In this document: one piece after another, positions 9,006 to 49,762 of the stretch
How the letters are laid out: every line of letters begins with the position of its first letter
Position numbering within the stretch: position 1 is the first letter of the stretch
Source: Escherichia phage ECD7
DNA: 64,000 nt
Sequence record: NC_041936.1
Strand: one strand, 5' to 3'
Made by a program: the position numbers and the translations under genes
Notes under the pieces: generated by a model
The model's database searches: none
What the model was told of the DNA's origin: nothing
The model's input: the letters and a program-made list of their open reading frames with translations, nothing else

Positions 9006-10092
9006 TGTCTCAATAAAACTTTATCAGGATTATGAGGCATTTCTAAATCATCGCTTTATAGAATTGGGTGCTACCTTTGTTACAATGACTCTGCGTGATT
9101 CTATTCGTGGGGTGAACGAAGGATTGTTGCAATTCTATGATAATAAGGCGATGCATACAAAATTAAACGGGAGAGAGATCATTCAGATTTCGCTATCAAC
9201 TGCTAATACAGATGAAGTGTTTAACCGAATCTATGGGATCTCTCATAGTAATGTAACAATTGACCAAAAATCCGACAACATTTTAACATTCCAGTTAAAG
9301 AGCTATCACGAAACACTAAACCTTAAATTTTCCCGCTCATTGACAAATAACGCTGTTAATAACGTAACTAGCATGATTGATGCCATCTATAAGGAAGTTC
9401 CTTTATGGAAACCTACTATAAAGGGTGATAACGTTGTTATTCCTCGTTGTCCGTGGGTTAGTACCATAAATGACTATATGGATTTTGTGAGGGCATACGG
9501 GCAAAGCGTAGAAACCGAGTCTTTCGTGTATTGCTGGGAAGATTTTGATGGTATAACGATCGCTGGACACGATACAATATTAAAAAATGAGCCAATACCA
9601 GCTATAATCTGTGAGCCTAGACTCATGGGGCAATTTATTGATATGTCGCCTAATCTGATGGTTTTTAATTTCGAGTGGCAGACTAAGAGCAATGCTAAAG
9701 TTAAAAATTCATTTAGCAATGTGACATACACAACTATTGATTTTGTTACTAAGCAGTATAATAAAATTATTGTTGGTAATGGGGATAATATTGCACACTT
9801 TGCTCATGGTGGAGCTTATGGTGATTTAACTTATAAGAATGCGTTTTTGGAAGGGTCTAAACTCGCCACAATAGAACAATATGATTCATATGCTACCGCC
9901 GTGTGTCACGGTAATTTTTCGTTGCGCCCCGGTATGGTTATTCGATTCTTTGATGAGAAGCAACAAGCACGCAATGATTTTATTGTTGACGAAGTGGTGC
10001 ATGAAATTAGCCGAGAGCAATCATTAACTCACCTGTATATGATCGGTAACAGCGAAGAATTACAGGAAGTCAAATTTGAAGGTAAGATATAA
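8983..10092 (+). CDS. 27: baseplate hub subunit gp27
   Basis: N-terminus MQRTGFPNVSIKLYQDYEAFLNHRFIELGATF..GLLQFYD matches recalled T4 gp27. Confidence 0.85.
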   Translation: MQRTGFPNVSIKLYQDYEAFLNHRFIELGATFVTMTLRDSIRGVNEGLLQFYDNKAMHTKLNGREIIQISLSTANTDEVFNRIYGISHSNVTIDQKSDNILTFQLKSYHETLNLKFSRSLTNNAVNNVTSMIDAIYKEVPLWKPTIKGDNVVIPRCPWVSTINDYMDFVRAYGQSVETESFVYCWEDFDGITIAGHDTILKNEPIPAIICEPRLMGQFIDMSPNLMVFNFEWQTKSNAKVKNSFSNVTYTTIDFVTKQYNKIIVGNGDNIAHFAHGGAYGDLTYKNAFLEGSKLATIEQYDSYATAVCHGNFSLRPGMVIRFFDEKQQARNDFIVDEVVHEISREQSLTHLYMIGNSEELQEVKFEGKI

Positions 10093-10610
10093 TGACAGAA
10101 ACTAAACCTATGTTAAAATTTGTTGTTCCTGTAAAAAAATTAGAGATAAACGGGAAACATATCAAGATCCCAAAAATGGGGATTAAGCAACATCGATTAT
10201 TAAAAGATGTTCGTAGCTGTGATGAAACATTAAAGATTCTTCTTGATTCAATCTGTCCTGGGTTAAACGCTGCCGAGTCTGAATTGGTTATGCTTAACCT
10301 TTGTGCGTTTAATGGTAAGTGTCTGGAAGAAAAAGACGGTCTTAAGCTGTCTGATGTGTATATTTGTACAGAGACTGAATTTACTTTAAATGGTAAAGTC
10401 TTTAAATTTAAAAATCCAATGTATACTTCTGACCCCATTATCGATGACGCTGATTTCTTGAGTCATCATTATCACGATCCTAGTGTAGACTTCCATGATT
10501 TCCCAGCTTTTATTATGGATTGGGCTACAGGATTAAGAAAAACTATTGCACTGGATACACCGGAAGGTACTATCTATGGTGGAATTAACATATTGGATCG
10601 CCTATCATGA
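10092..10610 (+). CDS. 28: baseplate hub distal subunit gp28
   Basis: 172 aa, ATGA overlap with gp27 stop, synteny. Confidence 0.75.
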   Translation: MTETKPMLKFVVPVKKLEINGKHIKIPKMGIKQHRLLKDVRSCDETLKILLDSICPGLNAAESELVMLNLCAFNGKCLEEKDGLKLSDVYICTETEFTLNGKVFKFKNPMYTSDPIIDDADFLSHHYHDPSVDFHDFPAFIMDWATGLRKTIALDTPEGTIYGGINILDRLS

Positions 10611-12340
10611 ATGACGCATTAACATCATTTCGCGGGATGCGCAAGGAAGCGGAAGAAAACCCGATTGATAAACTTAACAAATTAGATAAACTTGATTCTA
10701 TTGATAATTTGCAAGCCGCTACCGAATTGGTGGCGGAGACAGTAGAACAAAAATCTAATGAAGTTGTTGGTGCGGTAGAGGATAACACCGCAGCCAATGA
10801 ATTGACGGCAGAAAATACACAATCTACCGCTGGCAATACCAAAAAAACTTATGAAGAATTGCAAAAACTCAATAATTTCTCTTCTCAGATGAATGAGAAA
10901 TTACGTGGTTTTGGTGTTATGATGGAACGTAGATTTGGTGTTGTCAGTAAAATGGCTAGCGGTATTGGTGCGATTGAAGAAGCACTGAAAAAACCGGAAC
11001 AACCGCAAACAATGCCATCACCTCAGCCAGTTTTGCCTACTGTACCGGAACAGCCTAATAATGACAACTATCAAGGTCTTCCAAAGAAAAAACCAGATGT
11101 TGAGGAACGGAAGAAAAAGAACGCCACAGATAAGCGTAATGCCGATTCTATGGAAAATCTTCTTAAAGTTGTTCGTGGAGGATTTAAAGAAACCATAGGT
11201 ATCTCTAATAAGGTCTTAGGGATGTTATTTAAGATCACCTTGACCGCTATGGCAGAAGCCGCAAAATGGGGTGCTATTTTGATGGGTATTGTTTTTGTCA
11301 TTGATACCCTGATGGTTCATTTCAGATATTGGAGCGATTTATTCGAGACAAAATTCAGTGAATTTATGGATAAAGCCGGAGAATGGGCTGGACCAATTAG
11401 TGATATTCTAACAACTATTCGTCAAGTTCGAGATTATTGGTCTAAAGGCGAATATGGAGAGTTAATTAAATCTCTTGTTATGGGTATTGGTGATGCATTC
11501 TATAAAACCTTTATCCAACTTGATCGAATTATCACTACTGGTATTGCTAAAATTCTTCGCATGATCCCTGGTATGGGTGATTATGCCGATAAGTTAGAAT
11601 ACGGTGCTTTAAAGTCTGCTGTCGCTCAAGGCTATACGCCAAATGAAAGAGAACTCGAATTAATGGATAAGGTCGAGTCTGAACATGAAGAAGACAAATA
11701 TGGAGAGCGTACTGGTTGGACCGGAAAAGCCCGTGATATTGGCGAAGCTATTGGGGATTCTATTAAGGATAAAGTTAACGAAGGTCTTGTTAGTCTGGGC
11801 TGGCGAGATCAAAAGGATGTTGACGCAGAGAAACGACAAGAAGAATTAAAACGCGGGGAATATAAGTCTGTTTCTGCTGAACAACGATCTGCTAGTCGTA
11901 AACTTAGAATTAAAAGCGAGGGCGCGATCAATAATATTAATGAAGTTATGGAGAATTTGAGCGGTGACTATGACAAAGAAAGAATGGGAGAGTTGAAAAA
12001 GGATATTGATGTTTACCGTGAGCAAGTTCAAGATCCTACATTAGTTGAAAGTGATCGTTCTCAGTTAGAGCGTCTTATTGAAAAATTTGATGAGATGTAT
12101 GCTGATAAAACTAAGGGTGCGGTTCCAGCTAATCCTGTTCCTGCAACTGAAACGGAAACAGCAAAACAAGCGGAACGTACTGAACAAATGCAGAAACAAG
12201 CTGCAATCCAGCAACAAACGACAAATCAGACCTCAAACGTAAATAATACACAAATTGTAACAAACAATAGAACTGTTAAACAGGGTGCACCAACAACTAG
12301 AATTGATGCCCCCGGTACAATTAATATGGGGAACTTTTAA
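10607..12340 (+). CDS. 29: baseplate hub subunit / tail length determinator gp29
   Basis: 577 aa, coiled-coil rich, synteny between 28 and 48. Confidence 0.8.
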   Translation: MNDALTSFRGMRKEAEENPIDKLNKLDKLDSIDNLQAATELVAETVEQKSNEVVGAVEDNTAANELTAENTQSTAGNTKKTYEELQKLNNFSSQMNEKLRGFGVMMERRFGVVSKMASGIGAIEEALKKPEQPQTMPSPQPVLPTVPEQPNNDNYQGLPKKKPDVEERKKKNATDKRNADSMENLLKVVRGGFKETIGISNKVLGMLFKITLTAMAEAAKWGAILMGIVFVIDTLMVHFRYWSDLFETKFSEFMDKAGEWAGPISDILTTIRQVRDYWSKGEYGELIKSLVMGIGDAFYKTFIQLDRIITTGIAKILRMIPGMGDYADKLEYGALKSAVAQGYTPNERELELMDKVESEHEEDKYGERTGWTGKARDIGEAIGDSIKDKVNEGLVSLGWRDQKDVDAEKRQEELKRGEYKSVSAEQRSASRKLRIKSEGAINNINEVMENLSGDYDKERMGELKKDIDVYREQVQDPTLVESDRSQLERLIEKFDEMYADKTKGAVPANPVPATETETAKQAERTEQMQKQAAIQQQTTNQTSNVNNTQIVTNNRTVKQGAPTTRIDAPGTINMGNF

Positions 12341-27918: not shown

Positions 27919-28000
27919 AATAAAAATTCCTTAATAATCAATAACTTACAAAATCATATAGCCAAAATATAGCGGGATTATTACCCGCCGTTTAAAATCA

Positions 28001-38876: not shown

Positions 38877-38943
38877 ATTACCTCACTTCATATTTTAGCA
38901 GGAACAAGTTTATCCTCCATAACGGGGCTTTCGCCCCCTTTGT

Positions 38944-41491: not shown

Positions 41492-41821
41492 TCAACCTTT
41501 TTGTTCCATGAAAAGCGGTGCTGTTTCTTCTTTCAGTTTAATAACTAGCGCGGAAACTTCATCAAGAAAATCTTTTTCCATATGAGCAAGCATTGATTTA
41601 GAATCTTTGATGACTTTCAAAGAATATTCACTTAGATTTCCTTTTCCTAACAATAATGCAGGATACACACTATGTGGGATCTCGATTTCATGATATTCGC
41701 TCATAGTATAATATTTGTGAATTTTTAAATCTATATTTCTTCGTTGTACGTCTACATCAGCAATGACATACAGAAGTTCAATTTTATCACTTTTCTGGGA
41801 AAGGGTAGCATTCAAAAACAT
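41492..41821 (-). CDS. hypothetical early protein
   Basis: 109 aa, promoter cassette upstream. Confidence 0.5.
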   Translation of the reverse strand: MFLNATLSQKSDKIELLYVIADVDVQRRNIDLKIHKYYTMSEYHEIEIPHSVYPALLLGKGNLSEYSLKVIKDSKSMLAHMEKDFLDEVSALVIKLKEETAPLFMEQKG

Positions 41822-41878: not shown

Positions 41879-41903
41879 CACCTTTTTCATAAAATTTTAG
41901 GCA

Positions 41904-41930
41904 ATAAAAAAGCCTCCCCGAAGGGAGGCT
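41904..41930 (-). terminator. rho-independent terminator downstream of gene 32
   Basis: AGCCTCCCTTCGGGGAGGCT hairpin then TTTTTTATT on minus strand. Confidence 0.65.
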
Positions 41931-41940
41931 GTAAAATTCA

Positions 41941-42165
41941 TTACATCGCTAACAGAGAGTCCAGGTCATCCAGATCAGAAGCGGAGGAAGTACCGCCACC
42001 CAGGTCCAGAGATGCCATCAGATCATCAGCGGAAGAATCTGACGCTGTGCTAGTTGCGGTAGTACCAGCGTCGAATGCATTCATCTGTGCATCGAAATCA
42101 TCAAGCTGGCTGTTAATCGCTGCCGCAGCACCAGAAGCCGCAGTACCAGCTACCAGCTTACGCCT
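41941..42165 (-). other. 32: gp32 C-terminal acidic domain encoded out of frame
   Basis: minus-strand frame shifted relative to 42150-42887 translates ..[44 protein letters not shown], typical of the gp32 acidic tail; no start codon of its own. Confidence 0.6.
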
Positions 42166-42887
42166 TTAACTTTCTTAAATTTAGCATCCAGTTCCTCGAA
42201 AGATTTAAACTGGTCTTTTGCTACGATAACATCAATATCTACCATGTTTTCGAACAGATATTTCTGGAATGCTTCATCTTCGATGTTCGGAATCGCTGAT
42301 TGCTGCATGAAACGTGAATCATCGTAGTTCAGGAATTTATCTACTTTCTTAGCTTTCAGAAGGAAGTTAGCGCCTTCGAACGGACATACGATGTTTACAG
42401 GTTTTTCGCCCAATTCCGTGTTTACGTTGCTCATTGCCAGAATCTTGTCATAAATTTTCTTACCGAAGCGGAATTTAAATACTTTACCTTCGTTTTCCGG
42501 CGCTTTCGGATCTTTCATGACCAGAATGTTTGCGAAGTAAGAAGATTTACGCTTAACATCTTGATATTCTTTATTGTTGGTGTTGTACAGGTCATTTTCG
42601 CTAATGTATTTGCACACAGGGCAAGAATCAAAATCACCGTGGGTGCTAGGGCAGTTTTCCCAATAATACTTACCATTTACTTTGAAAGAATGGTTTACAA
42701 GGTTGATGATCGGTAAACCGTCTTCGGTGCGTGCCGGAAGAAAACGAATCACCGCTTCACCGTTACCCGCCGCGTCAGTTTTAATCTTCCACTCTTTCGG
42801 ATCTTCTTTGGAGAAGCCGTTGCTACCTTTCAGTGCTGCCAGTTGAGCTTGCAGTTTGGAAGAATCTTGACGACGAAAAATGTTCAT
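42150..42887 (-). CDS. 32: ssDNA-binding protein gp32, N-terminal and core domains (ORF ends prematurely)
   Basis: ..[32 protein letters not shown].., ..[12 protein letters not shown].., ..[15 protein letters not shown].., ..[14 protein letters not shown].. match recalled T4 gp32; start set to ATG MNIFRRQ..; ORF stops at TAG 42150-42152 before the acidic tail. Confidence 0.8.
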
Positions 42888-42953
42888 AATTATACCTCTT
42901 TTATACATTAACTATTAATTTGCTAGATTATTATACAGATTTAAATTTACTTG

Positions 42954-43634
42954 TCAACTATTTGTTTCGGCTTTTAATTGAGATATTTCTTTACACTCTT
43001 TAACTACTTTAACAAATAATGCTCTTGCTTTTGCGGCGTCAATAACAAGTAGTTTCTTGTACGCCTTCATTTTAACACTATAAGTTTGCCAAATCAAGTC
43101 TTTGGCTACCTTGTCGTGTTCGTCGATTATATTTAGAAAGCTATCTAACAACATAAACGACTCAAACGATATAATCCGATTTTGCAGTAGTTTAAAAATA
43201 CCGCTTGTTTCGGTTGCGGGATTATATGTAATTAGCTCTTTAAGAGTAACCCCGCGTTTCTCTGAGAAGTATACCAGACTTTTAATGTCATCGTCAAATC
43301 GTGTTGCAGCATCAGTGATCTTACCGATATACTCCATGTAAAATCCGTATGCGTCAACATCAGTGATTTCACCTACCCATGCATCGGTATTAGCTACCAG
43401 ATTGCTTAGGAATAGGAAGTATAATTCTCTTAGATTGTACTTTTCCGCTAATTTTGCGAAATAATACTTATCTCTGCGTTTATTGAATGCGGCATCAGAC
43501 AACCGCATCCTCCAATTGTATTTTACGCAATCATAACGCCCGTTCATGTGAGCTTTCATCATGCAATATAACATATACACAGATTTAGCATTAATTCGCA
43601 TATCTGGATCTGGAGGAAGACGGTTTCTGATCAT
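42954..43634 (-). CDS. 59: helicase loader gp59
   Basis: ..AKSVYMLYCMMKAHMNGRYDCVKYNWRMRLSDAAFNKRRDKYYF.. matches recalled T4 gp59. Confidence 0.8.
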   Translation of the reverse strand: MIRNRLPPDPDMRINAKSVYMLYCMMKAHMNGRYDCVKYNWRMRLSDAAFNKRRDKYYFAKLAEKYNLRELYFLFLSNLVANTDAWVGEITDVDAYGFYMEYIGKITDAATRFDDDIKSLVYFSEKRGVTLKELITYNPATETSGIFKLLQNRIISFESFMLLDSFLNIIDEHDKVAKDLIWQTYSVKMKAYKKLLVIDAAKARALFVKVVKECKEISQLKAETNS

Positions 43635-49730: not shown

Positions 49731-49762
49731 TTAAAGGGGGCGAAAGCCCCTATGGGGTTATT

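Follow-up and report, generated by a model that had tools for sequence, protein, structure and literature searches.

One missing cytosine splits gene 32 in the deposited genome of phage ECD7, probably through an error in the consensus sequence

[quoted passage not shown] We analyzed a 64,000-nt stretch of the ECD7 record NC_041936.1 (hereafter, the window), in which gene 32 is written as two pieces in different frames (Table 1). An earlier note, made from the sequence alone, had proposed that the gp32 reading frame ends prematurely at a TAG, that the acidic tail follows in the adjacent frame with no start codon of its own, and that gain or loss of one nucleotide near 42150-42168 would join the two. 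It offered three causes: an assembly error, a truncating mutation, or recoding.

Table 1. Features at and around gene 32, and GTCAACAACTTTTT copies throughout the ECD7 window
Feature	Position	Strand	Description
Gene 32, 5′ part	42150..42887	-	245 aa; N-terminal cooperativity segment and complete OB-fold/zinc core; ends at TAG 42152-42150
Gene 32, 3′ part, -1 frame	41941..42165	-	70 codons of the C-terminal (A/C) domain; stop TAA 41943-41941
Sigma-70-type promoter upstream of gene 32	42930..42957	-	TTGACA-16-TATAAT, 12/12
Intrinsic terminator	41911..41930	-	8-bp stem, 6 GC, T-run; 10 nt past the full-length stop
Missing-base site	42156..42157	-	window AAG-C-TGG; Brandy and G2248 AAG-CC-TGG; JK32 AAG-TC-TGG (Ser244-Leu245)
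Perfect 7-nt tandem GCTGGTA GCTGGTA	42144..42157	-	from imperfect GCCTGGTA GCTGGTA via deletion
GTCAACAACTTTTT copies	18139, 20516, 20874, 23774, 24920, 25315, 33795, 34076, 41874, 58122, 59247, 59470, 59751		+ strand coordinates

The two pieces read as the earlier note described them. The first opens at an ATG (42887-42885, minus strand) with AGAGG in front and runs for 245 codons to the TAG. Its product is an exact match to ASJ80327.1 / YP_009602199.1, [quoted passage not shown]. An exact-sequence look-up found this protein recorded on one contig only, that of ECD7 (164,706 bp), and there were zero exact matches in the assembly index. The second piece is in the -1 (+2) frame relative to the core frame, and both frames are open for 16 nt only, between nt 719 and 735 of the gene. 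The statement that the tail frame lacks a start codon holds as far as the ATG at 42084, the first ATG, GTG, or TTG in that frame, which opens a 47-aa ORF.

Comparison with relatives identified the cause of the split. ECD7 (KY683735), Enterobacteria phage Brandy, vB_EcoM_G2248, and Shigella phage JK32 all belong to the Straboviridae, genus Krischvirus (RB49-like), and the region is 99.7% identical to the window in Brandy, 99.0% in G2248, and 96% in JK32. In a four-way alignment, the three relatives read GGC GTA AGC CTG GTA GCT GGT (G V S L V A G), with AGT as the serine codon in JK32, and the window reads GGC GTA AG-C TGG TAG. One C of the CC pair is absent at 42156/42157, and there is no other difference nearby. 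The minus-strand context of the site is GTTAAAGGCGTAAG, then C or CC, then TGGTAGCTGGT; the intact form is AAGCCTGG and the one-C form is AAGCTGG. When the C is re-inserted, the two pieces become a 948-nt ORF that encodes a 315-aa protein identical to Brandy gp32, and the repaired gene differs from that of Brandy by two synonymous changes in 948 nt, at nt 369 and 516. The fusing indel that had been predicted is thus this single C. A tandem GCTGGTA-GCTGGTA, also pointed out earlier, is present at the junction. Since the relatives carry GCCTGGTA-GCTGGTA at this position, the repeat is perfect in the window because the C is deleted.

The base is present in the relatives that we examined. The earlier note had proposed a comparison with gp32 of the closest relatives, and all relatives examined have one continuous gene 32. 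In a 90% protein cluster of 25 members, the 14 other members listed are 310-324 aa long and the junction ...KGVSLVA... is invariant. The 109-aa downstream neighbor occurs on four further, independent contigs (three ENA metagenome assemblies and Brandy), each with a full-length gene 32; these contigs, selected for the exact 109-aa neighbor, are 95.3-97.7% identical to the window. We found no sibling genome, that is, ECD7 with an intact gene 32: the best INPHARED match was Brandy at 97.5%, alongside the four contigs sharing the neighbor. A 16-base junction pattern gave 64 loci in IMG/VR, none of them homologous to gene 32, and a 31-base junction pattern that accepted both alleles matched neither of them in IMG/VR, JGI metagenomes, or GTDB genomes. 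The split in the record is caused by one missing C, a base that every relative examined has.

We then compared the repaired protein with known gp32 structures. It aligns end to end with T4 gp32 (8GME_A, E = 4e-111) and matches the T4 and RB69 cores 1GPC, 2A1K, and 2ATQ with E = 1e-98 to 1e-105. Residues H66, C79, C89, and C92 align with the T4 zinc ligands H64, C77, C87, and C90 (PMC3012046). The Pfam profile PF08804 scores 172.8 bits (cut-off 26.8), with profile positions 1-208 of 208 placed at residues 41-241. As the profile is complete within these residues, the 245-aa piece holds the whole core. The repaired ECD7 protein shares the whole layout of T4 gp32 (PF08804; PDB 1GPC for the core and 8GME for the full-length protein with Dda): the N-terminal cooperativity segment, the zinc ligands (one His and three Cys), the OB-fold core, and the acidic C-terminal domain. 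It differs from T4 gp32 in that the C-terminal domain is out of frame with the core as deposited, being joined to it only after one C is added, and in having a tail that is ~14 residues longer and contains more Ala, Ser, and Thr. In T4 numbering the TAG corresponds to residue ~243, which places it ~10 residues short of the classical boundary of the fragment called *I or gp32-A.

The sequence past the stop retains the elements of a gp32 C-terminal domain. As the earlier note had recognized, it encodes an acidic tail, and we found that it aligns with the C-terminal domain of T4 gp32. In T4, residues 248-270 form the helix that binds Dda and residues 273-301 form the acidic tip (PMC11551737). Equivalents of both lie in the 3′ part of the ECD7 gene, as the partner-binding helix INSQLDDFDAQMNAF and the acidic tip SDLDDLDSLLAM. 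Over its 210 nt, the tail matches the in-frame Brandy tail at 100% of nucleotides and, being the same base for base, shows no decay. Codon changes in the tails of relatives are mostly synonymous, with 15 synonymous and 7 non-synonymous changes against JK32 and 4 and 2 against G2248, and the tail is thus maintained by purifying selection in relatives. To judge from these alignments, the likeness to the gp32 C-terminal domain is not a chance resemblance. In tblastn searches for split gp32 tails, the low-complexity filter masks the tail, and all matches stop at residue 272 or earlier.

The signals that flank the gene also fit a full-length product. The terminator (41930-41911), a strong one, trails the stop of the tail frame and does not trail the TAG, and G2248 has an annotated terminator at the same place. 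Because the terminator lies just past the full-length stop, the transcription unit is arranged for the 948-nt gene. Since the promoter and terminator bracket the full-length gene, we counted them in favor of an error in the record.

Recoding would reconcile the two frames with a full-length protein, if ribosomes shifted -1 or hopped within the 16-nt overlap. The geometry allows this: the frames overlap with the tail offset by -1, and ribosomes could pause at the stop that closes the core frame. A programmed -1 frameshift site is exemplified by A AAA AAG in E. coli dnaX, and bypass by T4 gene 60. However, nine heptamers lie in frame across the overlap, and none has the form X XXY YYZ. A hop between the two TGG triplets, over 7 nt, lands in the +1 frame and stops after WYCGFWCCGSD, whereas reaching the tail requires -1/+2. 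No homopolymer of four or more identical bases, the feature looked for as a sign of transcriptional slippage, occurs within 60 nt of the junction. We also found no stimulatory structure in 136 nt around and downstream of the junction, where the minimum free energy was -45.9 kcal/mol compared to a shuffle mean of -42.0 kcal/mol (z = -1.02) and 31 of 200 shuffles folded as well as the actual sequence. Rfam returned only sub-threshold matches for the junction region, driven by the terminator hairpin. As the two-frame split occurs in none of the relatives examined, there is no conserved signal. We rejected a programmed -1 frameshift, for which slippery heptamer, stimulatory structure, and conservation are all lacking, and gene 60-type bypass, since the TGG take-off and landing pair does not restore a productive frame. 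The likeness to either system is bare geometry, two overlapping frames in one gene, and we regard recoding as extremely improbable. Of the causes offered by the earlier note, recoding therefore falls for want of a heptamer, homopolymer, structure, or conservation; between error and mutation, the evidence favors error.

Another explanation would have gp32 made as two polypeptides, the core from ATG 42887 and the 47-aa tail peptide from ATG 42084, acting in trans. An ATG-initiated ORF of this length is indeed present in the tail frame. However, inspection revealed no Shine-Dalgarno-like sequence before this ATG (GATGCACAG-ATG), and the peptide would start too late to include most of the partner-binding helix region, since INSQLDDFDAQ lies upstream of ATG 42084. 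The same ATG occurs inside the uninterrupted gene in relatives. Moreover, a free tail could presumably not tether partners to gp32-coated single-stranded DNA. Like recoding, this arrangement is scarcely credible.

What remains are an error in the record and a real deletion, and here the known roles of the domain matter. T4 gp32 uses its C-terminal domain to recruit gp59, gp61, RNase H, and Dda (PMC3012046; PMC5892887; PMC11551737). Through this domain it also contacts further proteins of replication, recombination, and repair, and the domain acts as an electrostatic gate on DNA binding (PMC3012046; PMC5892887). The fragment that lacks it, gp32-A, is defective in Dda-coupled assays (PMC3012046; PMC5892887; PMC11551737, citing also Hurley et al.). 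ECD7 (KY683735.1), which came from chicken feces in the Moscow region, is strictly lytic and serves as a therapeutic phage at 1e9 to 4e10 pfu/mL (PMC10223927; PMC7277081). Given that the T4 domain recruits replication proteins and that ECD7 reaches high titers, a fixed tail-less gp32 is unlikely.

We therefore favor an error in the deposited consensus as the probable explanation: the allele is unique to ECD7, its tail is undecayed, the tail is important in T4, and the titer is very high. ECD7 gene 32 would then be an ordinary T4-type single-stranded-DNA-binding protein gene, and the real phage would make the full 315-aa gp32, identical to that of Brandy. The deposited sequence would have dropped one C of the CC in ...GTA AGC CTG GTA... 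(Ser244-Leu245), so that the frame runs into TGG TAG and the C-terminal domain is left in the -1 frame. Such an error could have arisen in base-calling, assembly, or consensus-calling at a short homopolymer beside a quasi-repeat. Several points tell against it. A two-base run is not a strong context for homopolymer errors. The change from an imperfect to a perfect direct repeat is also what real slippage or templated mutation is expected to produce. In addition, the record is otherwise clean, as described below.

The main rival is a genuine, recent one-base deletion in the sequenced ECD7 stock, in which slippage at the quasi-repeat GCCTGGTA/GCTGGTA, or a mutation templated there, left a tail-less gp32. 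Such an allele may have been fixed after plaque purification, or it may have been a majority variant complemented during high-multiplicity production. The deposited sequence does read this way, RefSeq kept the truncated protein, and the perfect tandem repeat is a plausible product of misalignment. Moreover, the cut falls just past a complete core, and T4 already has a C-domain deletion mutant strain, deltaPR201, which carries a small deletion of residues 292-296 (PMC5892887). By analogy with T4 *I, which lacks the C-terminal domain (residues 254/255-301) through proteolysis or cloning, the 245-aa product would fold and bind single-stranded DNA (PMC5892887). Having a complete core and N terminus and no tail, it would be functionally equal to *I, with cooperative single-stranded DNA binding, stronger destabilization of double-stranded DNA, and no partner recruitment expected (PMC5892887; PMC11551737). 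In contrast to *I, which is a laboratory fragment rather than a natural allele, the ECD7 cut lies ~10 residues further upstream and adds a non-native Trp.

Despite these points, a genuine deletion is unlikely. It is absent from every other genome or assembly examined, and with zero decay in the tail the event would have to be extremely recent. The protein would be without its partner-binding helix and its acidic tip, although the phage reaches 4e10 pfu/mL. Prior odds would also favor an error in a record over the isolation of a natural phage in which an essential gene had just been broken. More doubtful still is the strong form of this explanation, in which all ECD7 virions carry the deletion and grow to 1e10 pfu/mL despite a gp32 without its C-terminal recruitment domain.

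To put the missing C in context, we compared the whole window with Brandy. There were 105 indels, nearly all of which were intergenic or, in divergent patches, paired so as to compensate each other. Isolated 1-nt indels fell inside annotated genes of Brandy just twice, once at the gene 32 site and once at window 10388. We rejected the latter as a second in-gene frameshift of the window, since gp28 is intact in the window and it is the Brandy copy that is broken. The gene 32 indel is thus the sole frame-breaking in-gene indel of the window across 64 kb; this otherwise clean record counts against an error and in favor of a genuine deletion.

The gp28 gene, which encodes a baseplate hub protein, is at 10092-10610 on the plus strand of the window and encodes an intact 172-aa protein in the window, SAP, and JEP8. 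In Brandy (MZ504876; span 11562-11930 of our sequence L004), gp28 is annotated as 122 aa and carries a private AAA>AA change at L004 11857. As for ECD7 gene 32, a private single-base change, here in a homopolymer, truncates an essential conserved gene (122 rather than 172 aa), in this case a different gene in a different genome. The Brandy break is probably a frameshift of the record, comparable to that in gene 32. Other deposited Krischvirus genomes thus do contain single-base frameshifts in essential genes, which we counted in favor of an error in ECD7.

We also asked how often the ECD7 record differs from relatives by a private single-base indel. In a 20-kb alignment of five genomes, all five private 1-nt indels of the window were deletions, four of which shorten homopolymers. 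Over window positions 1-64000, compared with Brandy, SAP, RB49 (OZ035808), and JEP8 under an alignment filter that left out the gene 32 site, the window had 8 private isolated 1-nt indels against 304 private substitutions. The pooled counts for SAP, RB49, and JEP8 were 8 against 806 (odds ratio 2.65, p = 0.053). Homopolymer length is altered by six of the eight in the window, and private homopolymer sites lie at 27971, 38923, 38939, 49741, and 49746. This excess is suggestive of a slightly indel-prone ECD7 consensus, although it is borderline and non-significant. Moreover, all eight are intergenic, where natural variation is equally likely, a further point against an error in gene 32. Two intergenic terminator-like hairpins, at 38922-38942 and 49741-49751, have G5>G4 together with C5>C4 relative to the relatives, changes that are private to the window. 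These shortened arms could reflect a real, compensated loss of one base pair from the stem, or the homopolymers of both arms may have been under-called.

The missing C sits in a CCTGG (Dcm) motif, and we considered a base-calling error linked to methylation. This was rejected, as differences between the window and Brandy were neither enriched nor asymmetric at CCWGG or GATC; for CCWGG, the counts were 27 against 29 sites, with 6 against 8 changed. The idea has this one site in its favor, and the lack of enrichment counts against an error.

ECD7 gp32 is most probably an ordinary gp32, and the finding has small biological import. However, the truncated 245-aa protein is now in RefSeq and UniRef (YP_009602199.1, UniRef100_A0A220NTS5), where it stands for the gp32 of a phage given to patients, and the ECD7 gene 32 record deserves correction. 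If the deletion is instead real and fixed, ECD7 would offer a natural test of the in vivo need for the gp32 acidic C terminus, a question addressed so far mostly in vitro. The domain would then be dispensable in vivo in Krischvirus, or its role would be filled by another phage protein or by a tail peptide supplied in trans. Such a tail-less gp32 would surprise specialists in T4 replication.

Our comparisons also revealed features of the gene 32 neighborhood. Gene 32 keeps its place in the replication gene cluster: as in T4, gp59 (immediately upstream), gp33, dsbA, and rnh lie upstream of it and frd lies downstream, an arrangement that matches Brandy, G2248, JK32, and the ENA contigs. The gene 32 module (41900-42950) is 99.7-99.8% identical between ECD7 and Brandy, whereas the genomes overall are 96-97.5% identical, and the gene 32 allele in the close genomes SAP, RB49, and JEP8 is only 81-84% identical. 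The contrast between module and genome-wide identity suggests that gene 32 is a mosaic module recently common to two Moscow-area phages. The slot directly 3′ of gene 32 holds a 109-aa ORF in the window (41492-41821), Brandy, and G2248, a 412-aa ORF in JK32 (L003 2638-3876), and a 541-aa ORF in JEP8 (L080 9485-11110). The content of this slot varies among the phages and may include a mobile insertion.

Finally, the sequence GTCAACAACTTTTT, with at most one mismatch, occurs in 13 copies in the window, all in one orientation, compared to 0.08 expected by chance (Table 1). Its minus-strand reading, AAAAAGTTGTTGAC, combines an A-rich element with the TTGAC(A) -35 box. One copy belongs to a 12/12 promoter at 41878-41851, just past the gene 32 terminator, and many of the indels between the window and Brandy lie in or beside these copies. 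The copies resemble the early-promoter cassettes that recur in RB49-type phages.
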